Assembly: GCA_019308905.1 (NCBI GenBank)
Contig: JAFDHF010000002.1
Span: 75,854-139,853 of the forward strand
Length of the DNA stretch: 64,000 nt
Origin: Deltaproteobacteria bacterium
GTDB taxonomy: Bacteria > Desulfobacterota > BSN033 > WVXP01
Reading direction: 5' to 3'
In this document: in pieces, positions 11,307-63,056 of the stretch
How positions within the stretch are numbered: the stretch's first letter is position 1
Layout: the number at the start of each line of letters is the position of its first letter
Position numbers and translations under genes: made by a program
The notes under the pieces: generated by a model
What the model was told of the DNA's origin: nothing
The model's database searches: none
What the model saw: the letters and a program-made list of their open reading frames with translations, nothing else

Positions 11307-11319
11307 ATGGGTGTGACAA

Positions 11320-11480
11320 GGTAAGCGGATGCTTTGGGTGTAGGGAAGACGGTTGGAAGCCGTCGCGGACCCGCCGCTGTGAGTGGGGACGAAAGCCACA
11401 CAGAGTGCCACTGTTCCGCGTGAGCGGAGCGGGAAGGCGTGGTGAGTAGGACGATCCACGAGCCAGAAAACCTGCCCAAG
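11320..11480 (+). ncRNA. cobalamin (adenosylcobalamin) riboswitch aptamer
   Basis: Contains GGGAAG...GGTTGGAAGCCG...CCCGCCGCTGTGAG...GCCACTG and the B12 box AGCCAGAAAACCTGCC (11461-11476). It lies upstream of a TonB-dependent receptor gene. Confidence 0.75.
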
Positions 11481-11533
11481 GCGTTTCTCCATGAAGATTC
11501 CTCGAGGAGTGGGAAAATGGAGTGGGCCAACAG

Positions 11534-11726: not shown

Positions 11727-13838
11727 ATGAAGCCATCGCACAACCCCACACGTCCGCCGAAATCGACGGCCCGACCCGCCCACCCTTCACGGCACGGCAG
11801 GAGTCCGAAATCCCTTGCAAGGGGCCTCCTGGCACTCGCCTGTGCAGGGAGCCTCGCGCTGGCCCTGGATTCCACACCCTCTCCGGCCCAGGAGCCCGAT
11901 GAGAAGTCGGAGGTCCCCGTACTTCGCGAGGTTGTCGTAACGGCGACGAGACGGCAGGAAGAGATCCGGAAGGTCCCGGGCAACGTCACCGTCATCACCG
12001 AGAAGGACATAGAGAACTGGGAGACGATGACCGTGGCCGATCTGCTCCGGTCACAGGAAGGGATCGTGGTGAGAGATCTCCTGGGAAACGGAAAGGCCGC
12101 CCAGGTGGACCTCCGTGGATTCGGGGAGACAGCGCCCTTCAACACCCTCGTCCTGGTTGACGGGAGACGGGTCAACGAGATCGATCTGAGCGGTGTCGAT
12201 TGGACCCAGATCCCTCTGGATCAGGTGGAGCGCTTGGAGATCGTCCGGGGCACCGGAAGCGTCCTGTACGGGGACAACGCGGTTGGTGGAGTGATCAATA
12301 TCATCACCAAATCCCCTGAGGGAAAACCTTCGGCCATGATCGGCGGCGTCGGCGGAAGTTACGGGCGCAACGGGGCCAAAGCCTCTGTCGGCGGCGGGAC
12401 CGAGAAAATCGCGGCCTCTTTGACCGGCAGCTATGACGCAACAAGCGGATACAGGGACAACGAAGACTTCCGGAGAGGGGATGTCGGAGGAAAGGTCATC
12501 TACGATGTGACCGACGCTATCAGCCTCAACCTTACCGGATCCTATCACCGTGACGAATACGGTCTGCCGGGCCCACTCACGGAAGCAGAAGTCGAGGTGG
12601 ACAGGCGGTCCACCAGCAGGCCCCTCGACAATGCCAGAACCAGGGACGGGTACCTGAAGCTCGGCACGGATTGGGATCTGGGAGAGTACGGGCGAATCGT
12701 GGCGGACCTCTCGTACAGGGACCGGAACAACAGGGACGAGTTCGTCAGCTATTCGTCGGCTTCGGATCGGGATACCGCAACCTGGGCCTTCACCCCTCGA
12801 TACATCTGGGACGGAGAGATCACGGACCGCCCAAACACCCTCACCGCAGGAATCGATATCTATGCATCCGACCTGGACGCGGATTTTTTCTTTGGAACGC
12901 CCCTTGCTCCCTCGGGCTTTTCCAGGATCGAAAAGGATTCCTACGGGTTTTATGCGAGCGATGAATTTTCCCTGTCCGACAACCTCATCCTTTCCCTGGG
13001 TGCCCGGCACGAAGAGGTCAAGTACGATCTCGAACAGGAGGATTTCCTCTTCGGCCTCGTCCCCCTGGATGAAACAGTGAAAGACTCTGCAAATGCATAC
13101 ACCGCAGGACTCACCCTCCTCTACGGCAAAGGATCCTCCGCCTTTGTCCGAGTCAACCAGAGTTTTCGATTTCCCCTCACGGATGAACTCGTCGTCTTTG
13201 ATTTCGTGAATACGGGAAGCATTCGGATAAATTCCGACATCAAGCCTCAGATCGGCCATCACCTCGATATAGGGGTGAGACACTTCTTCACCCCCGACGT
13301 GCAAGCCAACGTCACCCTCTTCCACGCGGAGATCGAGGACGAGATCTTTTTCAATCCGCTGACCTACACCAACGAGAACTATCCGGAAACCCTGCACCAG
13401 GGCATCGAGGTCGGAGCGAGGGCGCAACTGCTCAAGAAGATTACGGTTTTCGGAAACTATACCTACGAGAAGGCGACCTTCGAGAAGGGTTCCTTCAGCG
13501 GCAACGACATACCCGCCGTACCGAGACACAAGGCAAACCTCGGACTCAAGATCAGTGATTTCGCCCCTGGACTTACCTTCGCTGCCGACTACAACTACGT
13601 GGGCTCGAGCTACCTCATCAGCGACGTCGCCAACGATTCGTCCAAGCTCGATGCTTATTTCACGGTCAATGCCAGGCTCACCTACAACTGGAAATGGCTC
13701 AGGGCCTATGCCGGCGTGAACAACGCGACAGACGAAAAGTACTCCGAATACGGCGTGGTCTCAGGTTTCTCTCAGACCTCTTACTTCTATCCCGCCCCTG
13801 GAAGGAACTGGGTGGCGGGCATCGAGGCCAGCTTTTAA
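11727..13838 (+). CDS. btuB: TonB-dependent outer-membrane receptor, BtuB-like (probable corrinoid transporter)
   Basis: Signal peptide, TonB box (EVVVTAT), plug domain, 22-strand barrel ending in a C-terminal aromatic residue (…GIEASF), and a cobalamin riboswitch upstream. Confidence 0.85.
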   Translation: MKPSHNPTRPPKSTARPAHPSRHGRSPKSLARGLLALACAGSLALALDSTPSPAQEPDEKSEVPVLREVVVTATRRQEEIRKVPGNVTVITEKDIENWETMTVADLLRSQEGIVVRDLLGNGKAAQVDLRGFGETAPFNTLVLVDGRRVNEIDLSGVDWTQIPLDQVERLEIVRGTGSVLYGDNAVGGVINIITKSPEGKPSAMIGGVGGSYGRNGAKASVGGGTEKIAASLTGSYDATSGYRDNEDFRRGDVGGKVIYDVTDAISLNLTGSYHRDEYGLPGPLTEAEVEVDRRSTSRPLDNARTRDGYLKLGTDWDLGEYGRIVADLSYRDRNNRDEFVSYSSASDRDTATWAFTPRYIWDGEITDRPNTLTAGIDIYASDLDADFFFGTPLAPSGFSRIEKDSYGFYASDEFSLSDNLILSLGARHEEVKYDLEQEDFLFGLVPLDETVKDSANAYTAGLTLLYGKGSSAFVRVNQSFRFPLTDELVVFDFVNTGSIRINSDIKPQIGHHLDIGVRHFFTPDVQANVTLFHAEIEDEIFFNPLTYTNENYPETLHQGIEVGARAQLLKKITVFGNYTYEKATFEKGSFSGNDIPAVPRHKANLGLKISDFAPGLTFAADYNYVGSSYLISDVANDSSKLDAYFTVNARLTYNWKWLRAYAGVNNATDEKYSEYGVVSGFSQTSYFYPAPGRNWVAGIEASF

Positions 13839-18439: not shown

Positions 18440-18622
18440 CCCGATCGACATCCCTCTGCAGCAGGTCTTCTGGCTCTCGGATCTTCCTTTGGGCTGCGGC
18501 CTTCCCGTCAGGGTGAACCCTGGCAGTGACGCGAGACGGGCGATCGCCCGGCAGCCTTCAGTCCCCGATCACAGCGGCGGGACCGCCGCGGATTTCCACC
18601 GCGTTCCGGGATGCTGCAAGGG
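18440..18622 (-). ncRNA. cobalamin riboswitch aptamer (second copy, minus strand) leading the cobT-cobD-cbiZ-cobU-cobS operon
   Basis: The minus-strand RNA carries GGTGGAAATCCGCGG...CCCGCCGCTGTGA...GTCACTGCC and the B12 box AGCCAGAAGACCTGC. The core resembles riboswitch 1 (shared CCCGCCGCTGTGA...GGGGAC). Confidence 0.7.
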
Positions 18623-18630
18623 AAATTCAT

Positions 18631-18658
18631 CTTATGATGCTTTCCCGCTCCTTGTCAA
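18631..18658 (-). promoter_or_regulatory. candidate sigma70 promoter for the riboswitch-cob operon (TTGACA, 16-17 nt spacer, CATAAG/ATAAGA)
   Basis: Hexamers read on the minus strand. They overlap the 3' end of the convergent aldehyde dehydrogenase gene. Confidence 0.35.
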
Positions 18659-20164: not shown

Positions 20165-22162
20165 TTACCCGCATCCAAGATCTTCCATGAGGTCCTGGAG
20201 CATTTCCGCGAGTTCCCCCGCTGCTTCTCCCGTAACAAAGTCCGGGGGCCTGGGCTCGCCGTCGGTCTTCCTGTAAGCGTCTCGAAGCTGGCCGCACGCC
20301 TCTTCGATATCGCCCTCCTCTATCAGGTCGCCTGCCGACTCGATCATGTTCCTCAGGGCGCGGAGCCTCTTTTCAGCCGAATTACCCGGGCCACTTCCGA
20401 TAAGCGTACCATTTTCGACCGACTCGTCGAAGAATTCAAGGATCTCGGCTACCTGTTCTCCAGGCGGTATCTCCGTCTCTAACCCGGTTCCGCTCAAGGT
20501 TACCACCACTGTCGGCTCGCCAGAATCATCGCTCTTGATCTCAAGGTGAGCAGACGAAGTCCCGAGGCTTGACGGCGTGTACATGACCTCCACGTAAAGG
20601 GTCTCACCGGGAGGCACTTCGGTCGGAGCACCCGGACCCGAGGCAATCGAGAAATCGCTGCTGCTGCCATCCTGAAAGGCGATACTGTCCACGGACAGCC
20701 CTATGCTTCCCAGATTCGAGATGCCGACCAGAACCGTAGCCGAGGAGCCCAGTTCTACATTACCAAAATCATAGCCGAGAGGTGAAACCTCGATGTGGGG
20801 GCCACAAACGACAGAAACCTCAGCAGAGGAGCCCCCTACTGCGATGAGGGGACTGAGAGGGGCGGCAGGTGAGCTGGCCCCTGGGGCAGTGGTCACTTGA
20901 TCCACACCTGGTGTATCGAAAACCCGGGCCTCGCTCGTGCCCACAGCCTGGCAATAGGGGATCTCCCCATAGCTATCGAGTTTCATTACCAGGAGATCGC
21001 CGGCATACCCGGTACCGCCGCCCACAATGTATCCCCTGTCTGCGGTCTGTTCGACAGAACAACCCCTGCCGGAGCCGTACCCCACGTAGGCCTTCTGCCA
21101 GGATATGTTTCCGACTTTATCCAGCTTCAATATCAACCAGTGATAATCCCCGAAGGACCAAGTCTTACCTGCCACGATGTATCCGCCATCTTCGGTCTGG
21201 CAGATAGAGTGCGCCCTGTCGTCACCCTCTCCTCCACAGCTCTTCTGCCACATGATCCCCCCTGTTGGGTCGAGTTTCAGGACCCAAAAATCCGATTCCG
21301 GAGGGCCGCCTGCGCCAAAGGTGGTGGTCCCGCCGGCTACGATATACCCGCCATCCGTGGTCTGCCGTATAGACCTGGCATACTCGTAATTGTCCCCTCC
21401 GTAGCTCTTCTGCCACGCCACCGTTCCATCGGGGTTGAGCTTTATGACCCAGACCCCCTCGGCCCCCGGGCCAAAAGAGTTGGTCTCGCCGGCCACGACG
21501 TACCCGTCGGATGCTCCGGTACTGTCGAATGTCTCCCGAACACAAGAGGCATAGTCGTCCCTAGCCCCCCCAAAGGTCCTCTGCCAGACAATCTGCCCAT
21601 CGGAGTCGAGCTTCAACACCCATGAGTCTGATCTTTCTGCTCCAAAAGAGAAAGTCAGCCCGCCCACCATGTATCCGCCGTCTGTCGTCTGTTGGATGGA
21701 AAATGCTTCGTCCGTATTCTCCCCTCCATAGGTTTTCTGCCAGACAACGTTTCCATCCAGATCGAGTCTCAGCACCCAGAGGTCGACCCCCGTCCCCTCC
21801 TCCGGCGACGATCCTCTTTGACCCGCGACAACGTATCCATTGGGGCTCCCACTCTCGTCAAAGGTCTCTTCCACGGAGTAGGCCATGTCATAATAGATGT
21901 CCCCGTATGTCTTCTGCCAGACGATCTCTCCCTCCTGGTCGAGTTTCAAGACCCAGACATCGGATGATCCGCTTGCCCCAAAAGAGAGTGTCTGCCCAGC
22001 CACGATGTATCCACCATCGGTCGTCTGGTGGATCGAATAGGCCTGATCATGTTGACTCCCACCATAGGTCTTGGCCCACTGAGCATAGGAGGGCGAAGGT
22101 ACGTTGAACCCTACGGCAAGACAAACCAACACCAAAAGAACCGGAATCGACTTTTTTCCCAT
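20165..22162 (-). CDS. secreted repeat protein: seven roughly 52-aa W-x-K-T-Y-G-G ... DGGY-V-AG ... W-V-L-K-L-D blades (predicted 7-bladed beta-propeller), a choice-of-anchor-D / ASH-like Ig domain and an acidic helical C-terminal tail
   Basis: Signal peptide (MGKKSIPVLLVLVCLAVGF...AQ). Seven clear tandem protein repeats. Ig-like domain (FGNVELGSSATVLVGISNLGSIGLSVDSIAF...HLEIKSDDSGEP). The start was refined to the ATG at 22160-22162, which has a GGAGG ribosome-binding site. Confidence 0.7.
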   Translation of the reverse strand: MGKKSIPVLLVLVCLAVGFNVPSPSYAQWAKTYGGSQHDQAYSIHQTTDGGYIVAGQTLSFGASGSSDVWVLKLDQEGEIVWQKTYGDIYYDMAYSVEETFDESGSPNGYVVAGQRGSSPEEGTGVDLWVLRLDLDGNVVWQKTYGGENTDEAFSIQQTTDGGYMVGGLTFSFGAERSDSWVLKLDSDGQIVWQRTFGGARDDYASCVRETFDSTGASDGYVVAGETNSFGPGAEGVWVIKLNPDGTVAWQKSYGGDNYEYARSIRQTTDGGYIVAGGTTTFGAGGPPESDFWVLKLDPTGGIMWQKSCGGEGDDRAHSICQTEDGGYIVAGKTWSFGDYHWLILKLDKVGNISWQKAYVGYGSGRGCSVEQTADRGYIVGGGTGYAGDLLVMKLDSYGEIPYCQAVGTSEARVFDTPGVDQVTTAPGASSPAAPLSPLIAVGGSSAEVSVVCGPHIEVSPLGYDFGNVELGSSATVLVGISNLGSIGLSVDSIAFQDGSSSDFSIASGPGAPTEVPPGETLYVEVMYTPSSLGTSSAHLEIKSDDSGEPTVVVTLSGTGLETEIPPGEQVAEILEFFDESVENGTLIGSGPGNSAEKRLRALRNMIESAGDLIEEGDIEEACGQLRDAYRKTDGEPRPPDFVTGEAAGELAEMLQDLMEDLGCG
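20860..22010 (-). repeat. seven divergent tandem repeats of about 156 bp inside the propeller gene (recurring ...TCTTCTGCCAGAC... blocks on the plus strand)
   Basis: Periodic DNA and protein repeat seen directly in the sequence. Confidence 0.5.
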
Positions 22163-22318
22163 AGCCTCAATCCTCCTAAAGATGCCGAATACCTGCCGTT
22201 CAGCCTCCATTTTCCGGCAGCGACCGAATCTTCCATCTCCCTTGGATTGCCCACAGGGCGACCGTACAGAAACGGGCACGCCCCATCCCCCGAGTCTCTT
22301 TTCGAAAGGATCCGAGTC

Positions 22319-23572
22319 CTAGGGGCTCAAGCCGTCGAGGTTCAGCTCAACGCCGAGTTGGGCCAGGCCGAAGATGACCTCCTCGGGTGCAAACTCGCAA
22401 TGCCCGTACTGGTTGAAAAGACTCGGGTAGGCCCTCAAAAACCGGGATCGACCCTTGAGTGCCACCCTGGCCATGTAAATCAACTCGTGCCTGTACGGAA
22501 CGATCGGATCCTTCAGATTGTGGAGCGATACCACCGGGACCTCCAACTCGCCGGTCGGCCGGTAGAAATCCGCCACGTACCTCCTAGCCTCCGGGTCGGA
22601 CGAGACCCTTTCAACACCGGCATTCAGCTCCTTGTCGTCCCACCAGGAGCCGGTGCCCCTATACCATCTGAACCGGTTCCCATAGGGCATTCCACCGGCC
22701 TTGTCTACCAGGTCGACGGACCCGCAGATGCTGTACTTCAGAATGCCGATTGCTGCCTCCACGTCCTGGTCTGGCCACATGCCCCGTGCTGCCCTGGTGA
22801 CGTCGAAGAGATCATCGGTCTTCTCTCCGCCGCCCAGGAGAGCCGCGGTGATCCCTTCAACGAGGTAAGGGTCGAAATTGCCGCAGGCGGTGTTGTAAGC
22901 GTATTCGAATTCCCCTGGGCCGTATTTGTCGGGATCGACGTACAGGGGGGTGGCCGGATCGTCGGGATGCCGGAAAACGCCTGGGAAGAAATAGTCGAAC
23001 ACGACTCGGAAATCGGCGAGGTACCTGACCTGAAAGGGCATCCCTCCTATGGGCCCACACATGGTCAGTGCACCGCCGTTGAATACTTCCGGGTGTTTCT
23101 CCACCATCATCGTAGCGATCAGGCCTCCCTCCGAAGCCCCCACGACGAATACCTTGGAGGCGGAACCGGCCTGGTCTTCCACCTGATCCACCAAGTCGAG
23201 TATGTCTCCTTCTGCCTCTTCCACCGCGTCTCCCGCCGTGCTGTAACTAGTCGTGGCAAAGGCATAACCACTCGAGACAACGAGCTCGACCAGGTCCGGG
23301 AACCTCGAGAGTTCATCCCACGGCAGCACCGGATCCGGTGGGAACTGGTATCCGTGGGCATAGACGATCAGCTCCCCGTTCCAATCAGAGGGGACACAGA
23401 TGAGTGTGTCGGCTTGGTCCGGCAAACCGTGTGAAATCCGACACCCTAGTGGAAGGGAAAAGGCGAATGGGCCCTCGGCAAAGGCCGGCCTCCCGGAGGC
23501 GAATGCACAGACAAGGAGACCGATTCCAAGAAGCGCCAGGACTCTGTTTGTTTTCTTGTCTCTTCTCCTCAT
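22319..23572 (-). CDS. secreted alpha/beta-hydrolase (esterase/lipase-like) with a GASEG nucleophile motif
   Basis: Signal peptide, GxSxG motif (VVGASEGG), AAGGAGG ribosome-binding site, and an AT-rich promoter region upstream (23600-23720). Confidence 0.65.
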   Translation of the reverse strand: MRRRDKKTNRVLALLGIGLLVCAFASGRPAFAEGPFAFSLPLGCRISHGLPDQADTLICVPSDWNGELIVYAHGYQFPPDPVLPWDELSRFPDLVELVVSSGYAFATTSYSTAGDAVEEAEGDILDLVDQVEDQAGSASKVFVVGASEGGLIATMMVEKHPEVFNGGALTMCGPIGGMPFQVRYLADFRVVFDYFFPGVFRHPDDPATPLYVDPDKYGPGEFEYAYNTACGNFDPYLVEGITAALLGGGEKTDDLFDVTRAARGMWPDQDVEAAIGILKYSICGSVDLVDKAGGMPYGNRFRWYRGTGSWWDDKELNAGVERVSSDPEARRYVADFYRPTGELEVPVVSLHNLKDPIVPYRHELIYMARVALKGRSRFLRAYPSLFNQYGHCEFAPEEVIFGLAQLGVELNLDGLSP

Positions 23573-53416: not shown

Positions 53417-54718
53417 ATGGAGAGTGGCAAGAAAAGCCGGGAAATGCTGAACAGAGCCCAACAGGTCATCCCCTTGGGGGTTAACTCGAACTTCAGGTAC
53501 TGGGGTGACGACAAGACCCTGATCATCAAAAGGGGCCAGGGAGCCTATATCTGGGACCAGGATGACAGGAGGTACATCGACTACCGCCTCGGTTTCGGCC
53601 CCACCATCCTAGGGCATGGGTATCCCTCGGTCGTCGAGCGGGTAAAGGAGGCCCTGGAGATGGGGAACGTCTTTGCCATGACGAACGAATACGAGATCTC
53701 AGCCGCGGAGAAGATCAAGAAGCTCACAGGAGTAGACCTGGTGAGATACGCGAACTCGGGGACAGAGGCCACCATGCACGCCATCCGGATCGCCCGGGCG
53801 TATACGGGCAGGGACAAGGTGCTCAAATTCGAGGGATGCTACCACGGCTTCCACGACTACACGCTCTGGAACTGCCAACCTCCCATTCCCGGCGCCGGCT
53901 ATAGAAGATCACCGGTGCTCGTGGCACAGGGCTCGGGAATCCCACAGGTCATCGCCCAATTGGTCTATTCCATTCCCTTCAACGACGAGGAACTCCTTGA
54001 GAAAAAGGTGAGAGAGAGCTGGGGAGATATCGCCTGCATCATCATCGAGCCTCTCATGGGAAACACGGCTTCCATCATGCCCAAGAAAGGCTTTCTCGAA
54101 CTCGTCCGAAGCCTCTGCGATCAGTACGGAATCGTCATGATCATGGACGAAGTCAAGACGGGTTTCAGGATCGCAAAAGGCGGGGCCCAGGAATACTTCA
54201 ACATCAAGGCCGACCTCGTGACCTATGCCAAGGCCCTGGGAAACGGCTTCCCCATAGCGGCCATCGGCGGCAAGAAGGAGATCATGGGCGAGATCGGCTG
54301 GCAGAAGATTCCCCACGGCGGAACCTATTGTGCCAATGCCGTGGCCGTCGCTGCCGCCGATGCGACCCTCGACGCCATCGCAGGAGGGGCTCTTGAAAAG
54401 GTCGATGCCCACGGCAGGATCCTGGCCGAGGGGCTCAAGAACGTCTTGAAAGAGAGAGGCGTTCCCGGAATAGTCCAAGGCCCTCCATCCATGCCGGGGG
54501 TGGTCTTCACGGAAAAGGAGGAGGTCCGCGAGTATCGGGACTGGGCCGATTCCGACCACGACACATACGAGGAGGTCATCCTGAAGCTCTTCGAGAAGGG
54601 CGTGATGCCGGACAAGGACTCCAGAGAGCCATGGTTCATCTCGGCCTCCCACAGCGACAGCGATGCGGACCAGGCAATCGGGGCCTTTGACGAAGCCGTG
54701 AAGGAAGTGTTCGGCTGA
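53417..54718 (+). CDS. class III aminotransferase, glutamate-1-semialdehyde-aminomutase-like
   Basis: PLP class III features (GTEATMHAIRIARAYTG and DEVKTGFR with the catalytic Lys). Confidence 0.85.
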   Translation: MESGKKSREMLNRAQQVIPLGVNSNFRYWGDDKTLIIKRGQGAYIWDQDDRRYIDYRLGFGPTILGHGYPSVVERVKEALEMGNVFAMTNEYEISAAEKIKKLTGVDLVRYANSGTEATMHAIRIARAYTGRDKVLKFEGCYHGFHDYTLWNCQPPIPGAGYRRSPVLVAQGSGIPQVIAQLVYSIPFNDEELLEKKVRESWGDIACIIIEPLMGNTASIMPKKGFLELVRSLCDQYGIVMIMDEVKTGFRIAKGGAQEYFNIKADLVTYAKALGNGFPIAAIGGKKEIMGEIGWQKIPHGGTYCANAVAVAAADATLDAIAGGALEKVDAHGRILAEGLKNVLKERGVPGIVQGPPSMPGVVFTEKEEVREYRDWADSDHDTYEEVILKLFEKGVMPDKDSREPWFISASHSDSDADQAIGAFDEAVKEVFG

Positions 54719-54742
54719 AATCCGGAGAAAGGAGGTGAACTC

Positions 54743-56197
54743 ATGCGGAAAGGTCCAGTAGCAGGCACCGAGATGTCGACAGGCTGGGGCCTGAAGACCC
54801 TCACACAGGACGGCCTCGAGAAGATCCATGCGGCCACGCTCGATGTCATGCAGACCACGGGGATCTCGGTGGGGAGCGATGAGGCCCTCGACATCCTGGA
54901 CAAAGGCGGGTGCTGGGTCAACAGGAAAACCCAGGTGGTGAGATTCCCCCCCCACATAGTGAAGGAAGCCCTTTCCACCTGTCCTGGCCGCATCCTGCTT
55001 GCCGGCCGTGATCCGGCCGACGATTTCATGATGGGCGGGCGGGAAGTCGGGTTTACGACCTTTGGAACAGGCGTCCTTGTGGTAGATCCCGAGACAGGAG
55101 AGGTCAGGCCTTCGACAAAACACGACATGGGGATGACAGCCCTTCTGGCAGACGCCATGGAGAACGTGGACGTACTCACAACTCCTGTAGCAGCCAGGGA
55201 CAAGCCCGATTCATCCTACGATCTCCACATGGCCGAGGCGAGTTTTGTCAACTGCTCCAAGCACCTTCACAGCGATGCCGAGGACGGCCAGAGGGCGATA
55301 AAGATCATAGAAATGGCCTCGGCCATCGTGGGAGGCGAGGAACAACTCAAGGCGAGACCGATCGTCTCCTTGGCCATCTGCCCCACGAGCCCTTTACAGC
55401 TCATCGAGCCCATGGCGGAGGTGATCATCGAGGCTGCCAGACACTGGATTCCCATCGACGTCCTCAGCATGGCCATGGCCGGCGCTTCAAGCCCCATCTC
55501 GCTCTCGGGGGCCATGGTCACCCACAACGCAGAGGTCCTTTCGGGTATCGTCCTGGCTCAACTGACCAGCCCCGGCGCCCCGGTGATCTATGGCAGTTCC
55601 ACCACGACCTTTGATATGAAAAGGGGAACCGCGGTCGTGGGGGCGCCGGAACTCGGGATGATAAGCGCCCTGGTGGCGGAGCTTGCCAACTACTACAACC
55701 TTCCGAGCTATGTCGCCGGCGGGTAGGCTGATTCGAAGATATCCGATGCCCAGGCAGGCCACGAGAAGACCGTTACGGCTCTGCTGCCGGCCCTGGCAGG
55801 GGCCAATCTCATCTACGGTCTGGGCATGCTCGAGATGGGCATGACCTTCAGCTTCGGCCAACTGGTCATCGACGATGAGATCGCGGCGATGGTCAAGAGA
55901 GTGGTTGCAGGGGTTTCTGTCGAGGACGAGCCGATGGGTGTGGATCTGATCAAGCAGGTGGGCATAGGGGGTAACTTCCTGACCCAGAGGCACAGCCTCA
56001 GGCACGTGGCCACGGAGCAATCTCAGGTGAGGATCTTCGATCGTCGCATGCGAGGAGCATGGGAGAAGAGAGGATCCAAGGATCTGCTTCAAGTGGCAAA
56101 CGAGAGAGCCCTGGAGTTGCTGAAAACCCACAAGCCCCTTCCGCTACCCGACGGAGTCGAGGAACAGCTAGAAAGGATCGTGGCCAGTGCGGAATAA
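54743..56197 (+). CDS. mttB: trimethylamine:corrinoid methyltransferase (MttB) homolog with an in-frame amber codon (TAG at 55724-55726) at the conserved pyrrolysine position. The predicted full product is 484 aa with Pyl near residue 328.
   Basis: The ORFs 54743..55726 and 55826..56197 are in the same frame and separated by a single TAG with no other stop. Both halves are MttB-family sequence. The TAG position corresponds to Pyl334 of methanogen MttB. Confidence 0.75.
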
Positions 56198-56254
56198 ATC
56201 GCATGAAGGAATCTGTGGTCCGAAGAGAAAGGATTCTCCATCGAGGAGGGAGAA

Positions 56255-57664
56255 ATGACGACCAATATCTTGACCAGGATGGGCGACGGGGAGAGGGTCT
56301 CCATGTTGCCCGACCAAGTCAAAGAGGACCTCTGGGCAGGGACCAGGGATGCGGCCCAGAGGGGTGGAATTCCGGAACTTTCCCAGGAGGAGGTGGAGCA
56401 GCTCTTCGATATTTTTGCCGACACCAACCGCATCGTCAGTGTCCGTCCAGGCCACGAGGTTGTCATGACGGACGATGGCGGTGCCATGTTGCTTGTCTGC
56501 GAGCAGAGCGATGGAGGGGTGGGGATTCCCATGAGCCGGCTCCAGTCGATTCTAACCTATGAGCGGGGTTGCGCGGCCGACACTGCATCGCTCGGACACC
56601 ACGATTACAGCTACAAGGCCGTGAAGCCCCTGGTCTTCTATGAGATGCAGGAGTATTACGCCGCATCTCAGGTAACCACTATCCCCCTCTTTTACGGTTC
56701 GCAGCCCAATCTGGGCCTGTATTACCAGCCTGACGGCCCCTTTCCCAATCCAGCGGATCTTCTCCCCCAGGGCAAGATCAGGGAAGCCAGAGAGACCCAG
56801 GAAAAGGCGGCCGACCGCCTCAGGAAGGACATGGTCTATATCGGCACCAAACTCTACGAGGTCGGCTGCGAGGGCATCAACTTCGATACCGCGGCCTCAG
56901 CCGGGGACGCGGATTTTTGGGCGACCCTGGAGGCCGTGGCCGAACTCAAGGGTGCGGCCCCACACATGGCCGTGGAAGTGGGGATGTCCAGTGAGTTCGT
57001 CCTGGGCATGCACGGCGAGATCAAGTTCGACGGCAAGCGGCTCGCAGGTATGTATCCCCACGAACAGGTAAAGGTCGCGGAGGCTGCAGGGGCGGATATC
57101 TTCGGTCCAGCCGTGAACGTAAACACCACGAAATCGATGCCGTGGAACCTCGCCAGGGCTGTGACCTTTGTCAAGGAGACCGTTCGAGCTGCCAGAATTC
57201 CCGTCCACGTCAACGCAGGCATGGGGGTGGGAGGAGTCCCCATGTTTGAGATCCCTCCTATTGACTGTGTGACCAGGGCATCCAAGGCATTGGTCGAAAT
57301 CGGGAAGGCAGACGGGTTGTAGGTGGGCACGGGGGATCCTTTCGGCATGCCTATGGCCCACATAATGGCTGCGGGTATGGGTGGCATGAGGACCGCCGGA
57401 GATCTGGTGGCCTGGATGCAGATGACCCGGAAGATGAAAATAGGCGAAGCCAAACATTATGTGGCAGAGAGATTGGGCCTGAGACCGGTGGACCTGTCAG
57501 ACGAGGAGGTCATGCGCCGGGTTAGGGAGGAGCTCGGCATAGGCGTGATCACGGCGGTGGCAGGGGATGCTAAAGGAATAGCGGCCAAACTCAAGATCGC
57601 CGAACTGCTCGATATTCGGATCAATTCGGTCGATCTGTTCAAATCCAGGATCGGCTACCCGTGA
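56255..57664 (+). CDS. mtbB: dimethylamine:corrinoid methyltransferase (MtbB, Dimeth_PyL family) homolog with an in-frame amber codon (TAG at 57320-57322) at the conserved pyrrolysine position. The predicted product is 469 aa with Pyl at residue 356.
   Basis: ORFs 56255..57322 and 57323..57664 are contiguous and in the same frame. Strong MtbB-like motifs lie on both sides of the TAG ([29 protein letters not shown]...TAG...[29 protein letters not shown]). Confidence 0.75.
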
Positions 57665-57746
57665 ATTGAGTCCAGAGCGGCGAGATCACTTTTCGTGATT
57701 CAAGGTCACCCGGTGAGAAGAGCTGTTCCAGGGAGGGATTCGCAAC

Positions 57747-58427
57747 ATGAACGAAGAACTCATGGCTGAGGCCAGAAAGTCCATTACGGAAGGCGATAAG
57801 AACAAGGCCGGAGAAATTGCAAGGAAAGGTCTTTCACAAGGACTCGACCCCATGGCGCTTCTTGAGGATGGCTTTATTCCGGCGATAACAGAGGTGGGAA
57901 GACTCTTTGAGCAGGAGGAGATCTTCCTGCCAGAGCTGATGTTGGCCGCCGAGGCGATGAAGACTGCCGCCGCGATCTGTAACGGGGCCCTGCCCAAGGA
58001 AAGGGTGAAGCAGATAGGTCGAGTGGTCATAGGAACAGTCGAGGGCGATATCCACGACATCGGGAAGAGCATCGTTGAATCCTTTCTCTCTGCCCACGGC
58101 TTCGAGGTCCACGATCTTGGCAGGGAGGTACCCACCGATGAGTTCATCAAGAGGGCCGTTGAGCTGAAAGCCGACGTCATCGCCACCAGCGCCATGCTGA
58201 CAACCACCATGGGGGCACAGCAGGACCTGGAGGATGAGCTGAGGAAGAGGTTTCTCCGCGACAGGTTCAAGACGATCATCGGAGGAGCACCTGTGGACCA
58301 GCAGTGGGCGGATACAATCGGTGCTGACGCCTATGCAGAGGATGCCTCTGAGGCCGTGCAGAAGATCAGGGAACTCCTCGGATCCCAGGCCTCCGCGGCC
58401 CCTGAGAAAGGTCGAAAGAATCGGTAA
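57747..58427 (+). CDS. cobalamin-binding corrinoid protein (MtbC/MttC/MtgC-like)
   Basis: N-terminal helical cap plus a B12-binding Rossmann domain with the DxHxxG motif (GDIHDIGK). Confidence 0.85.
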   Translation: MNEELMAEARKSITEGDKNKAGEIARKGLSQGLDPMALLEDGFIPAITEVGRLFEQEEIFLPELMLAAEAMKTAAAICNGALPKERVKQIGRVVIGTVEGDIHDIGKSIVESFLSAHGFEVHDLGREVPTDEFIKRAVELKADVIATSAMLTTTMGAQQDLEDELRKRFLRDRFKTIIGGAPVDQQWADTIGADAYAEDASEAVQKIRELLGSQASAAPEKGRKNR

Positions 58428-58468
58428 AAGGGGTTCAGGCGGCCAAGACCGGAGGGGGGAACTAATTC

Positions 58469-59953
58469 ATGGACACATGGCGAGAGAGGGCCAGAAGCGG
58501 CATAACCCCCATTGTGGTCAGACCTGGGATGAGAATTGAGCTTCTCAGTGGCAGAGAGCTCGAAAGGGTTCACCAGGCTACGCTGACGGTTCTCGGGCAA
58601 AGTGGCGTGAGATTTCCCTATGAAAGGGGTCTCAAGATCTTTGCGGAAGCAGGCGCAAAGGTCGATTTCGAAAGTAAGATCGTCCGGATCCCGGCTGATC
58701 TGCTGATGAGAAGCCTCGCCAACGCGCCGAGAACCATCGCCATGGCTTCCAGAGGCCCCGAGGATCTCGATCTCTATCTGGATGGAACCAGGAGTTACTG
58801 CGGGACCGAGGGGACTGGGCTGGCCGTAGTCGATCTGGAGACTCGCAAGCGAAGGCCTTCTACAAAAAGAGACGTGGCCATGATGGCCCAGATCTGCGAC
58901 TATCTTCCTTCCATCGGCTTTTACTGGCCCATGGTGAGTGCCCGTGACGTCCCTCCGGGGGTGATCTCACTCCACGAACTCGAGGCATCCTTTACCCACA
59001 CGGAAAAACACGTCCATATCATCAGCTGCACAGAGGCGAAGACCGCAGGTTATGCCGTTGAGATGGCCAGAGCCGTTGCAGGCGACAGCGAATCGCTGAG
59101 AAAACGCCCTCCCCTTTCCCTGCTGGTCTGTGCAACTTCTCCACTGACACAGGACAAAGGCTCACTGGAGGCGGCCCTGAGATTCGCCGAGGCGGGACTC
59201 CCTGTATGCTTCTGCACCATGCCGGTCGTGGGCTCCACCGGCCCGGGTTCCATGGCAGGGACCATGATCATGGGAAATGCGGAGATCCTGAGCGCCCTCT
59301 GCCTCATTCAACTGGTCTATCCCGGAGCGCCGGTCTGTTACGCTTTTTTCCACGACATGATAAACCCCTTCACCGGTCAATGCTGGGCCTCGGCGCCCCA
59401 GAAGGCGGGATTTCATACGGCGGTCGTACAACTCGGGCACTACTACAATCTCCCGGTAATGAGCGGCTATGGAGGCACCGACGCTCGCAAGCCGGAAAGT
59501 TGGCAGACAGGGAAAGACAACGCCATCGATGCCCTGTTCTCCTTTCTCACAGGCCCTGACCTTATGCCTTCTCTGGGGCTTCTCGAGGCCTACACTCTTC
59601 TGTACCCGGAGAAGATCCTCTTGGACACCGAGATTTTCAACTCCGTCAAGACCATGACAGAGGGAGTCAGAATCGATGAGGGGGCACTTGCCCTGGATGA
59701 GATCATGGCTGTTGGTCCTGGTGGCCACTTCCTCGACAGGGATTATACCTGCGAGAATCTCCGCAAGCTCTGGCAGCCCGGTGTCGCCAACCAGTGGTCT
59801 CCCCAAGCTGGAGGCTTTCTCGATCCACAGGAGGCTGCAATAGAAAAGATCAGGTGGATTCTTGCCAACCATCACCCGAACCCCCTTGAGGAGAAGGTGG
59901 AGAAAGAGCTCGCGAGGATCATCAGGACAGCCGAGAGAGAACTGCTGGGCTAG
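58469..59953 (+). CDS. MttB-superfamily methyltransferase without an amber codon (non-pyrrolysine paralog, quaternary-amine/glycine-betaine-type MtgB-like)
   Basis: Full-length uninterrupted 494-aa MttB-family protein. It has G at the position aligned to Pyl of the upstream paralog. TAG stop. Confidence 0.85.
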   Translation: MDTWRERARSGITPIVVRPGMRIELLSGRELERVHQATLTVLGQSGVRFPYERGLKIFAEAGAKVDFESKIVRIPADLLMRSLANAPRTIAMASRGPEDLDLYLDGTRSYCGTEGTGLAVVDLETRKRRPSTKRDVAMMAQICDYLPSIGFYWPMVSARDVPPGVISLHELEASFTHTEKHVHIISCTEAKTAGYAVEMARAVAGDSESLRKRPPLSLLVCATSPLTQDKGSLEAALRFAEAGLPVCFCTMPVVGSTGPGSMAGTMIMGNAEILSALCLIQLVYPGAPVCYAFFHDMINPFTGQCWASAPQKAGFHTAVVQLGHYYNLPVMSGYGGTDARKPESWQTGKDNAIDALFSFLTGPDLMPSLGLLEAYTLLYPEKILLDTEIFNSVKTMTEGVRIDEGALALDEIMAVGPGGHFLDRDYTCENLRKLWQPGVANQWSPQAGGFLDPQEAAIEKIRWILANHHPNPLEEKVEKELARIIRTAERELLG

Positions 59954-60047
59954 TCTCGATGGGCGAAGAAGAACCTCCAAAGGGAAGACAAGACATGAAA
60001 AAAGAGGCAGGATTTTCCGGCCTGAGACCCGAGCAAGGAGAATCCAC

Positions 60048-60956
60048 GTGGAGGCGATCGAGATCAGCCGGGAGGCGGAAGCGGGTCTGAAGAAAAGACC
60101 CAAAAGCCTTTTTCCCTGGGAAATACCCTTCTACATGGGGCCGATCACGGTCCTGGTAGTGGTCTTTGTCTTTGCTCCCCTGGTGATCATCCTGTTTTTC
60201 AGCTTCCTGAAAGCAGGCCCTCTGGGCGAGATAGTGTACCGGTTCAACCTCGATAATTTCCGGGCCATCCTTGGAGGCGGCTATGGAAAGGTCTTTCTTT
60301 ACTCCTTTTATCTTGCTGCACAGACAAATCTGGCATGCATCGTCTTGGCCTATCCGCTGGCCTACTTTATCGCGAGGTACGGAGGCAGATGGAAGATCTT
60401 TCTCATCTTCATGGTCATCATCCCCTCCTGGGTGGCCTATCTTATCAGACTTTACGCCTTCAAGACCATAGTGGGAAAACAGGGCCTCATCAACAGCCTC
60501 CTCATCCACCTCGGGCTCATCTCAGCCCCCATCGAGATGCTCTACACACCCTTTATCGTCATGGTCGGCCTGGTTTACACGTGGTTGCCCTTTATGGTTC
60601 TCCCTCTCCATGCCTCCCTGGAAGGGCTCGATCCGGCCCTACTCGAGGCTGCCACGGATCTGGGGGCCACACCCATCCGCCGCTTCTTCAGGGTCACCCT
60701 CCCCCTCACCCGGGGGGGGCTCATCGCAGGATCGATACTCGTGTTCATCCCCACTCTGGGAGACTGGCTCGTTCCCTATCTGCTGGGTGGGTCGAAGGTT
60801 ATGATGGTTGGAAACCTGGTCGCCGAAAAGTTCATCATGCTGGGCAATATCCCGGAGGGCTCCAGCCTAGCCGTCATGCTGGCAGCCACGCTGGTCCTGA
60901 TTCTATACCTTTCCATCAAATGGGGGGGGAAGGAAGCGATGGAGAGAATTCTGTGA
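60048..60956 (+). CDS. ABC transporter permease (PotB/PotH-like)
   Basis: BPD_transp_1 membrane protein. The GTG start at 60048 has an AAGGAG ribosome-binding site. Confidence 0.75.
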   Translation: MEAIEISREAEAGLKKRPKSLFPWEIPFYMGPITVLVVVFVFAPLVIILFFSFLKAGPLGEIVYRFNLDNFRAILGGGYGKVFLYSFYLAAQTNLACIVLAYPLAYFIARYGGRWKIFLIFMVIIPSWVAYLIRLYAFKTIVGKQGLINSLLIHLGLISAPIEMLYTPFIVMVGLVYTWLPFMVLPLHASLEGLDPALLEAATDLGATPIRRFFRVTLPLTRGGLIAGSILVFIPTLGDWLVPYLLGGSKVMMVGNLVAEKFIMLGNIPEGSSLAVMLAATLVLILYLSIKWGGKEAMERIL

Positions 60957-61744
60957 ACCGAAGAAATGTCGCCTCGAAACTCCTCGGCCTGATGTCTTTC
61001 TGCATCTATTTCTTCCTATGGGCTCCGGCTCTTGTCATCATCGTCTTTTCTTTCAGCAGCAATAAGTACGGCGTAAAATGGGAAGATTTCACCACCCGCT
61101 GGTATGTTTTCCTCTTTCACAACATGGATGTGAGAGATGCCCTCTTCCGGAGCCTTGTGGTCGCATCCGTCACGGTCATCGTCTCCACAGTGATAGGAAC
61201 CATCACGGCATACGGCCTCTACAAGTTCCGTTTCAGGGGCAAACAGCTCCTGCGGACATCCATCCTTATTCCAATTGTCTTGCCCAGTGTCGTGACAGGA
61301 GCTTCGTTGCTCGTGTTTTTTACTAGGCTGATACACATCCCCCTGGGATACCCGAGTATCATCCTGGCCCACATAACCTTCAGTACGCCCCTGGCCGTAT
61401 TTGTCATCCTCGGGAGAATGCAGAGAATAGACTGGGCCTGGGAAGAGGCCGCACTCGACCTGGGAGCAAACCGGGTCCGCACTTTCCTGAGAGTGACCGG
61501 GCCCCTCTTGCTACCGGCCATCATAGCCTCGGCGGTTCTGATCTTTCCATGGTCCTTTGACGATTTCGTTATCACTTATTTTGTGGCGGGAATCGGTACC
61601 ACGACTCTACCGATCTATGTGTTCTCCCAGATTCGGTTCGGCGCCACCCCTGTCATCAATACCATCGGGACGCTCTTTGTGGCCGTGACCATAGGAGCGC
61701 TCATCGTTTTTCGGCTGGTAGAGAAGAAGGGGGAATCCATTTAG
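60953..61744 (+). CDS. ABC transporter permease (PotC/PotI-like)
   Basis: BPD_transp_1 membrane protein. Its GTG start overlaps the upstream stop. TAG stop. Confidence 0.75.
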   Translation: MNRRNVASKLLGLMSFCIYFFLWAPALVIIVFSFSSNKYGVKWEDFTTRWYVFLFHNMDVRDALFRSLVVASVTVIVSTVIGTITAYGLYKFRFRGKQLLRTSILIPIVLPSVVTGASLLVFFTRLIHIPLGYPSIILAHITFSTPLAVFVILGRMQRIDWAWEEAALDLGANRVRTFLRVTGPLLLPAIIASAVLIFPWSFDDFVITYFVAGIGTTTLPIYVFSQIRFGATPVINTIGTLFVAVTIGALIVFRLVEKKGESI

Positions 61745-61922: not shown

Positions 61923-63056
61923 ATGAAGATGAAGAATCTCGGCAAGGTTGGCATGGCTTTTTTCTTCTCGATTGTTTTCACCATGGGTGTGCTGTCCGGC
62001 GCCCTGGCCGAAGGCAAATACAAGGATTACCCGGTACCAAAGGCCTGCATGGATCAGGTCCGCAAGGAGGGGAGCAGGCTTTTCATCTACGACTGGGCCG
62101 AGTGGTGGCCCGAGGATCTGTTTGCCAATTTCACAAAGGAATTTGGCGTAAAGATCACGAGGGATCATTTTGCGGACTCAGAGGAGATGGTGACAAAGAT
62201 CAAGCTCAATCCCAAGGCCCCCTACGACCTTGTCACAGGCATAGGGCCTGAACATGTGATGCGGCTGAAGGGGTTGGGCCTGGTCCGGCAGCTCAACCAT
62301 GACTGGCTTCCCAATGTGGATGCCTATCTGGAAGACCAATACAAGAAGCTACCCTATGATCCGGGCAACCATTTTCAGATCGGCGATTCTGTCTACTTTA
62401 CGACCTACACGTACAACTCGAAATACGTGGACCCCAACGACCCCTTGATCCCCTCGTGGAAGCTGCTTTTCGAGGGCAAGAAGTACGCAGGCAAGATTAC
62501 CATGATCGACAACATGTTCGAGACTGTCGGCACGGCCTTGAAGTATCTCGGATACTCGTACAACTCTGTGAACGAGAAAGAGCTGGAAGAGGCAAGAAAG
62601 GTTCTGCTCAAGCAGAAACCAATGGTGATGGCTTACGATTCCTGGCCGAGGCGACTCCTGGTGGAAGAGGAGGCCTGGATCTCGCACCTGTGGGTCGGAG
62701 ACAGTTGGCTCCTCCATCAGGATATGCCCACTATACTGGGGGCCCTGCCGACAGAGGGGACTTTTATGGCCCTGAACACGGACTTTCTTCCCATAGGCGG
62801 TAAACATCCGGCGGCGGCACACCTGTTTCTCAATTATCTTTTCCGGACGGATGTGAACGCAAAGCTGATCCAATGGATCGGCTATCCTCCTGTCCACAAA
62901 CACGTCATGGAGCTGATGTCCGATGAGATGAAGAAATGGCCCGGCTTCATCATCAAACCGGAATATGCCAAGAAGTGTGACATCTTCGATATCAAGGCTG
63001 TTACCGGAAGGGGAAGAGAGCTGAGAGCTAAGATATGGGAGGAGCTGAAAAAATAG
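61923..63056 (+). CDS. ABC transporter substrate-binding protein, PotD/PotF (spermidine/putrescine) family
   Basis: Signal peptide, SBP_bac_1/8-like fold, and an AGGAAGGAGG ribosome-binding site. Confidence 0.8.
   Translation: MKMKNLGKVGMAFFFSIVFTMGVLSGALAEGKYKDYPVPKACMDQVRKEGSRLFIYDWAEWWPEDLFANFTKEFGVKITRDHFADSEEMVTKIKLNPKAPYDLVTGIGPEHVMRLKGLGLVRQLNHDWLPNVDAYLEDQYKKLPYDPGNHFQIGDSVYFTTYTYNSKYVDPNDPLIPSWKLLFEGKKYAGKITMIDNMFETVGTALKYLGYSYNSVNEKELEEARKVLLKQKPMVMAYDSWPRRLLVEEEAWISHLWVGDSWLLHQDMPTILGALPTEGTFMALNTDFLPIGGKHPAAAHLFLNYLFRTDVNAKLIQWIGYPPVHKHVMELMSDEMKKWPGFIIKPEYAKKCDIFDIKAVTGRGRELRAKIWEELKK

Follow-up and report, generated by a model that had tools for sequence, protein, structure and literature searches.

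The closest described counterparts of the locus reported here come from Methanosarcina barkeri and from Deltaproteobacteria. In M. barkeri MttB (PDB 7XCL/7XCN), a trimethylamine methyltransferase, the residue written as X at position 334 of the 7xcl_A chain is pyrrolysine (Pyl), and the key residues include Gly110-Thr111, joined by a cis peptide, Met249 and Tyr364 (PMC9842639). Within the Deltaproteobacteria, the Olavius algarvensis delta-1 symbiont was described in 2007 as carrying multiple Pyl-encoding mttB and mtbB genes together with a split pylS, pylBCD and pylT, and no mtmB was reported (PMC1976440). In 2021 metagenome-assembled genomes (MAGs) of marine Deltaproteobacteria/Desulfobacterales revealed that the Pyl arrangement is cosmopolitan, and that it occurs with non-Pyl paralogs and nearby corrinoid proteins (PMC8318568).

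We analyzed a window, that is, a whole stretch of 64,000 nucleotides (nt), from the genome of an uncultured Deltaproteobacteria bacterium (GenBank assembly GCA_019308905.1, contig JAFDHF010000002.1, positions 75,854 to 139,853 of the forward strand). On its plus strand, at 54743-56197, lies mttB, a gene for a trimethylamine:corrinoid methyltransferase of 484 amino acids (aa), assigned by translation, TIGR02369 and PDB 7xcl_A, with an in-frame TAG (UAG) as codon 328 at 55724-55726. We put the probability at about 0.92 that this region is one intact gene for a Pyl-dependent trimethylamine (TMA):corrinoid methyltransferase in which UAG328 is decoded as Pyl. The observations that follow establish what the gene is, where its TAG lies and that this TAG is conserved, that the downstream part is under selection, and that the same MAG contains pyl genes. 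The locus resembles the M. barkeri system in protein family, in the UAG column, in active-site residues and in having a corrinoid partner with a DxHxxG motif.

Gene structure and family membership of mttB

The mttB frame begins with the ATG at 54743, directly preceded by AGGAGGTG, and consists of 327 codons, the TAG and a further 156 codons closed by the TAA at 56195-56197. A preliminary description of the locus, made from the sequence alone, had noted two open reading frames (ORFs) in the same frame (54743..55726 and 55826..56197) split by this TAG, an open frame beyond it, and a 484-aa fusion with the amber codon at about residue 328. The ORF list, the sequence and the translation agree with that account throughout, with no stop between the TAG and the terminal TAA. 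Both flanks had also been assigned to the MttB family, and the flanking peptide reads as it was quoted there. The two halves separately match Pfam MTTB (PF06253), with E = 4e-61 over profile positions 32-337 and E = 1e-31 over 341-493, and they match the NCBIfam equivalog model TIGR02369 ('trimeth_pyl') over positions 1-313 and 315-469, the TAG occupying profile position 314. These family matches of both halves are far above chance. With X at residue 328, the full-length protein scores 723.3 bits on TIGR02369 over the profile range 1-469, above the equivalog cutoff of 525.

The public annotation of mttB is wrong in detail, being truncated at the TAG. GenBank record MBW2056169.1 (54743-55726) is a 327-aa 'trimethylamine methyltransferase family protein', and the C-terminal parts of mttB and of the neighboring mtbB are unannotated. 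That the TAG itself is an assembly or sequencing error has a negligible chance of being correct. Two independent assemblies contain the gene with its TAG, one on a 168,130-bp contig and the other on an 18-kb contig of the Joint Genome Institute (JGI), Ga0366833_1022706, and the identical 327-aa N-terminal product occurs in two assemblies/MAGs (MBW2056169.1 and MBW2120951.1). The agreement of the two assemblies therefore excludes a sequencing error, and conservation of the TAG across species argues the same way.

Pyrrolysine column and active site

Among PDB sequences, M. barkeri MttB (7xcl_A) matches the window MttB with E = 2.6e-133. Codon 328, the single in-frame UAG, aligns with X334 of that chain, so that the canonical Pyl position proposed in the preliminary description is borne out by alignment with Methanosarcina MttB. 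Identity between the two proteins amounts to 232/479 aligned residues (48%), at 48.1% before the Pyl position and 48.7% after it. The named active-site residues are all conserved, G108-T109, M243 and Y358 of the window protein corresponding to G110-T111, M249 and Y364 of M. barkeri.

This alignment also bears on the idea that the gene is split, with a 327-aa N-terminal part and a C-terminal piece starting at the in-frame ATG at 55826 being translated apart and assembling into a Pyl-free enzyme. The ATG is what such an arrangement would need. However, the 33 codons between the TAG and this first downstream ATG are the most conserved stretch of the protein, 24/33 being identical to M. barkeri MttB, and the catalytic tyrosine (Y358) falls within them. 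Codon-periodic conservation runs through the same segment in an alignment of 41 genes, and no ribosome-binding site was noted in the sequence before 55826. We regard separate translation of two pieces as very improbable.

Conservation and selection

Relatives were collected by a scan of one genome per species, which gave 43 related loci, and the frame was read in 42 of these. In 39/42 relatives (45-81% identity) there is exactly one in-frame stop, always TAG and always in the same column, within the motif ...PS[YFW]VAGG*[AG]DSK.... Among the best 120 protein-database matches, 98 are cut short as N-terminal fragments of 311-352 aa with ...PSYVAGG or a close variant at their end; these stop at the same codon. 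Compared with the syntenic ortholog in related locus L003, mttB shows a proportion of nonsynonymous differences (pN) of 0.122 upstream of the TAG and of 0.098 downstream, synonymous sites being almost saturated; other pairs behave alike. Because synonymous sites are saturated in most pairs, values are given as pN/pS (nonsynonymous and synonymous proportions) instead of as the rate ratio dN/dS. Constraint after the TAG is therefore no weaker than before it.

These data were weighed against the view that mttB is a pseudogene, a former gene inactivated by a nonsense mutation that yields, if anything, a non-functional 327-aa fragment. Gene calling by GenBank and IMG gave a protein of 327 aa and a residual fragment, as this view would lead one to expect. 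Yet the stop coincides exactly with the Pyl column and nearly all relatives share it as TAG, no further stops or frameshifts occur in mttB, and the 156 downstream codons are under no less constraint than the upstream part. Relaxed constraint, additional lesions and an unconserved stop are thus all lacking in mttB, and the preference of the preliminary description for a Pyl enzyme over a pseudogene is borne out, the two halves being free of other disabling mutations. Contradicted by conservation and by purifying selection, the pseudogene reading is rejected as very unlikely to be correct.

Some 20 close, full-length homologs (41-62% identity) retain the VAGG-x-DSK motif while the Pyl column is filled by a sense residue, in most cases Trp and in others Val, Ala, Gln, Leu or Ser. 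They include P0005, P0006, P0009, P0011, P0020, P0024, P0037, P0044 and P0051 among the database proteins and loci L039 and L040. From their sequences these proteins look like a clade of 'Pyl-replaced' MttB relatives, to which no activity is assigned.

An adjacent mtbB with its own in-frame UAG

Directly downstream, at 56255-57664 on the plus strand, lies mtbB, which encodes a dimethylamine:corrinoid methyltransferase of 469 aa (translation, TIGR02368) and has an in-frame TAG at 57320-57322, codon 356. The preliminary description was correct for mttB and missed this second gene. The N-terminal half of MtbB matches TIGR02368 over profile positions 1-355 and the C-terminal half over 357-465, the UAG being profile position 356, and the full-length protein scores 582.3 bits (cutoff 369.1), as expected of a Pyl-MtbB. 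The TAG stands in the DGL*VGxGDP column in 14 mtbB copies of related loci. With two adjacent genes each interrupted once, and exactly at the Pyl site of its own family, it is not reasonable to regard them as pseudogenes.

Pyrrolysine genes in the same genome bin

ARAGORN found no tRNAs in the window and hence no tRNA-Pyl, and Pfam scans of all large ORFs found no pylS, pylB, pylC or pylD there. For pylT this negative is meaningful, because ARAGORN detects tRNA-Pyl(CUA) in eight related loci. The Rfam tRNA model (E <= 0.1), by comparison, was silent at L031 5636-5708, a pylT identified by ARAGORN, so Rfam alone cannot exclude pylT. The lack of pyl genes and tRNA-Pyl from the 64-kb window would be consistent with an inactivated mttB, but a full pyl gene set is found in the same MAG, as described below.

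Related locus L031 holds the complete set PylSc-corrinoid-PylB-PylC-PylD-pylT-PylSn, and its PylSc was used as the query against the protein database. A first PylSc candidate, P0205, was rejected as coming from a different organism. Cluster P0164 consists of two GenBank proteins of 'Deltaproteobacteria bacterium' MAGs, whose accessions lie approximately 2,700-2,800 above those of the window MttB in the two MAGs, which is suggestive and not decisive. The contig carrying P0164 is JGI Ga0366834_1003687 (30,744 bp; L051 1-12572 and L052 1-20354), hereafter the pyl contig. It encodes an mtbB with TAG, PylSc, a corrinoid protein, PylB, PylC and PylD, and the PylSc, PylB, PylC and PylD all score above their NCBIfam cutoffs. 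Approximately 9 kb further on are tRNA-Pyl(CUA), PylSn, a methyltransferase of the URO-D/MtbA family whose gene adjoins pylSn, two mtbB with TAG, and a second mttB, which is 53% identical to the window mttB and also has an in-frame TAG. The pyl contig thereby adds three mtbB and one mttB with TAG, so that the genome bin contains at least six Pyl-encoding genes.

The PylSn of this contig is MBW2058872.1 (L052 10001-10354), deposited as 'hypothetical protein JRJ26_15395'. Two hypothetical proteins of the window are JRJ26_01580 and JRJ26_01585, on the 168,130-bp GenBank contig, and the window and PylSn, sharing the locus-tag prefix JRJ26, therefore belong to the same MAG. A sister MAG from a sister metagenome (JRH07, GCA_019309355.1) contains the identical mttB locus (JRH07_03795 and JRH07_03800) and a syntenic contig with tRNA-Pyl and PylSn (JRH07_01330). 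Composition points the same way. The GC content of the pyl contig is 57.2%, and its tetranucleotide frequencies correlate with those of the window at 0.97; as controls, pieces of the window against the rest gave 0.93-0.96 and every other locus gave <=0.88. By binning, then, tRNA-Pyl(CUA), a split PylS, PylB, PylC and PylD occur in the same MAG as mttB, and the pylT, pylS, pylB, pylC and pylD genes for which the preliminary description had advised a search of the rest of the genome are present outside the window, pylS as pylSn and pylSc.

Stop-codon usage and RNA structure after the UAG

Several observations weigh against decoding of UAG328 as Pyl and should be set beside the evidence above. 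The pyl contig is linked to the window only by metagenomic binning, though two independent bins and composition agree. Neither mtmB nor a RamA-type activase was seen in the window. TAG is not avoided as a terminator, since the 45 genes of the window end in TGA (26), TAG (10) or TAA (9), and decoding of codon 328 must therefore compete with release factor 1; some truncated 327-aa MttB product is expected. Finally, there is no conserved or unusually stable RNA structure after the mttB TAG that would favor read-through. By minimum free energy, the 100 nt after each TAG are no more stable than shuffled sequence (z = +0.22 for mttB, -1.27 for mtbB), and RNAalifold found 0 consensus pairs in 41 bacterial mttB segments downstream of the TAG, in which conservation is codon-periodic.

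The Rfam PYLIS models nevertheless match at both genes in exact register. PYLIS_3 (RF02510) scores 81.7 bits at the mttB TAG (55724-55823; gathering score 38), and PYLIS_2 (RF02509) scores 83 bits at mtbB, starting at the TAG. The PYLIS_3 model contains only about 8 base pairs, and with so few pairs, stability at the shuffled level and no consensus structure, the score is attributed to conserved coding sequence. A PYLIS RNA element is not supported here, for want of a stable, covarying structure; what the matches confirm is the identity of the genes and their register, and not a cis element.

A third candidate for read-through, elsewhere in the window, was also rejected. A hydrolase-like ORF at 22319-23572 on the minus strand ends in TAG and is followed by 717 in-frame codons that continue into 20165-22279 (minus strand). 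The downstream protein carries a signal peptide of its own (MGKKSIPVLLVLVCLAVG...), which starts approximately 56 codons after the TAG, a 99%-identical database homolog starts at this signal peptide, and many others match from about there. For these reasons the in-frame arrangement is regarded as chance.

Neighboring genes and a proposed operon

The remaining genes of the cluster are on the same strand as mttB and mtbB. A corrinoid (B12-binding) protein of the MttC/MtbC type is encoded at 57747-58427 (+) (TIGR02370, Pfam B12-binding and B12-binding_2). It scores 226 bits on TIGR02370 pyl_corrinoid (cutoff 215), and the DIHDIG at residue 101 is the His-ligand motif (His-on DxHxxG) expected of a cognate corrinoid protein. 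It is followed at 58469-59953 (+) by a non-Pyl paralog of the MttB superfamily (494 aa; Pfam MTTB E = 4e-73), which scores 379 bits on TIGR02369, under the cutoff of 525. The paralog shares 32% identity with the Pyl MttB, and a Thr stands in its Pyl column. In the PDB it matches MttB (7xcl) about as well as it does glycine betaine methyltransferase (9yce/2qne). Judged from these matches the paralog is a probable quaternary-amine methyltransferase, with no substrate assigned.

Upstream of mttB, a class-III (HemL/GntE-like) aminotransferase is encoded at 53417-54718 (+) (Pfam Aminotran_3, NCBIfam GntE), ending 24 nt before mttB on the same strand, and is probably co-transcribed with it. This protein scores 550 bits on NCBIfam GntE ('GntE guanitoxin transaminase', cutoff 525), and its nearest PDB entries are HemL-type glutamate-1-semialdehyde aminomutases. 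In L003, L010-L013, L015 and L021, too, this gene is found in linkage with the mttB-mtbB cluster. At the other end of the cluster are PotB-/PotC-like permeases (60048-60956 and 60953-61744, both +) and a PotD-like binding protein (61923-63056, +), identified with Pfam, NCBIfam and JGI gene calls on L001. The ATPase gene of this Pot-type ATP-binding cassette (ABC) importer lies just past the end of the window, and synteny of PotDBC-like genes with the methyltransferase cluster extends to L010, L011, L012 and L021.

The genes from 53417 to 61744 are co-oriented with gaps of <=94 nt, and most have clear Shine-Dalgarno-like sequences, while potD follows 178 nt further on. Co-orientation, short gaps and these sequences suggest a single operon of aminotransferase, mttB, mtbB, corrinoid protein, non-Pyl mttB paralog, potB, potC and potD. 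Consensus sigma-70 sites are about as frequent in the region as by chance, with 4 matches where shuffled sequences predict 3.5. The preliminary description had spoken of a Gram-negative context with a TonB receptor and sigma-70 promoters; the TonB-dependent receptor at 11727-13838 is real, and the promoters are not supported.

The composition of the cluster raises the question of what MttB acts on. Instead of free TMA, an imported substituted methylated amine could be demethylated stepwise, from R-N(CH3)3+ to R-N(CH3)2, R-NHCH3 and R-NH2, and then transaminated, with MttB, MtbB, the non-Pyl paralog, the corrinoid protein, the aminotransferase and the Pot-type importer all taking part; N-demethylation would then be complete. 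The linkage of Pyl-mttB, Pyl-mtbB, non-Pyl paralog, class-III aminotransferase and PotDBC-like genes is kept in the Desulfobacterales MAGs L010-L013, L015 and L021, and further genes of possible relevance are those of the agmatine-deiminase and amino-acid-permease families upstream in the window and of the arginase family just past its end, so that genes of agmatine and polyamine type surround the cluster. If this were the case, Pyl enzymes would act on something other than free TMA and dimethylamine. However, the window MttB lies 200 bits above the cutoff of the TMA-methyltransferase equivalog and has every one of the named active-site residues of the TMA type, and linkage alone does not define a substrate. 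Similar loci were read as TMA utilization with a betaine-type non-Pyl paralog by Kivenson et al. (PMC8318568). We consider an imported substituted amine unlikely, though less so than the alternatives weighed above, and retain TMA as the predicted substrate of MttB.

Corrinoid-related genes elsewhere in the window

Two cobalamin riboswitches were found at a distance from the cluster. The one at 11319-11493 (+) precedes the TonB-dependent receptor, and the one at 18443-18633 (-) precedes a cobT-cobD-cbiZ-cobU cluster for corrinoid salvage/remodelling (18323-14936, minus strand). The two riboswitches with those genes would fit a high demand for corrinoid.

Proposed mechanism and comparison with known systems

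From the known systems (PMC9842639, PMC1976440, PMC8318568) we infer the actual insertion of Pyl, the substrate of MttB and the downstream methyl route. UAG328 would be decoded by the amber-suppressor tRNA-Pyl (anticodon CUA) in competition with release factor, the tRNA being charged by the split pyrrolysyl-tRNA synthetase, PylSn plus PylSc, with Pyl made from lysine by PylB, PylC and PylD. Read-through would give a protein of approximately 53 kDa with Pyl328 in the active site beside G108-T109, M243 and Y358. On the model of M. barkeri MttB, TMA would be bound by the Pyl imine and a methyl group presented to the corrinoid, in its Co(I) state, of the 57747-58427 protein; the Pyl-dependent MtbB may carry out the same chemistry on dimethylamine. 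From there the methyl groups would go to a one-carbon carrier and be oxidized.

The window differs from M. barkeri in several respects. It comes from a bacterial host of the Deltaproteobacteria/Thermodesulfobacteriota type, whose MAG encodes a pyrrolysyl-tRNA synthetase split into PylSn and PylSc, with the genes on another contig, and the downstream methyl acceptor is presumably not coenzyme M. Further members of the proposed operon are genes for an aminotransferase, a non-Pyl paralog and a Pot-type importer. Glycine betaine methyltransferase MtgB (PDB 2QNE/9YCE) shares with the window MttB the fold and corrinoid-dependent methyl transfer, and the paralog at 58469-59953 belongs to the non-Pyl MttB superfamily, the group of MtgB. 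Unlike MtgB, the window MttB has a Pyl codon and a score of 723 bits on the Pyl equivalog, and its match to 2qne/9yce (E = 3e-70) is much weaker than that to 7xcl_A.

Similarity is greatest to the delta-1 symbiont and the marine Desulfobacterales MAGs, which share with this organism the Gram-negative sulfate-reducer type, multiple mttB/mtbB with UAG, the split pylSn/pylSc, pylBCD and pylT, and also non-Pyl paralogs and corrinoid proteins close by. Over two contigs the window MAG has at least 2 mttB and at least 4 mtbB with TAG. The lineage is a different one, however, the closest GTDB species representative being an uncultured Thermodesulfobacteriota MAG with 81% MttB identity and a syntenic locus. 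GC content is 57% in the window MAG against 41% in the published bbl MAGs (PMC8318568), and in the window genome, unlike the published Deltaproteobacteria, this mttB-mtbB cluster is on another contig than the pyl genes.

Family, codon position, machinery and occurrence in Deltaproteobacteria have all been published, and the locus is conceptually nothing new. It is a well-supported case of natural genetic-code expansion (UAG = Pyl) in an uncultured Thermodesulfobacteriota/Deltaproteobacteria lineage. Automated annotation hides the trait, MttB being cut at 327 aa, its C-terminal part omitted and PylSn labelled 'hypothetical'. The locus is further evidence that bacteria of this kind are able to compete with methanogens for the methylamines of anoxic sediments.

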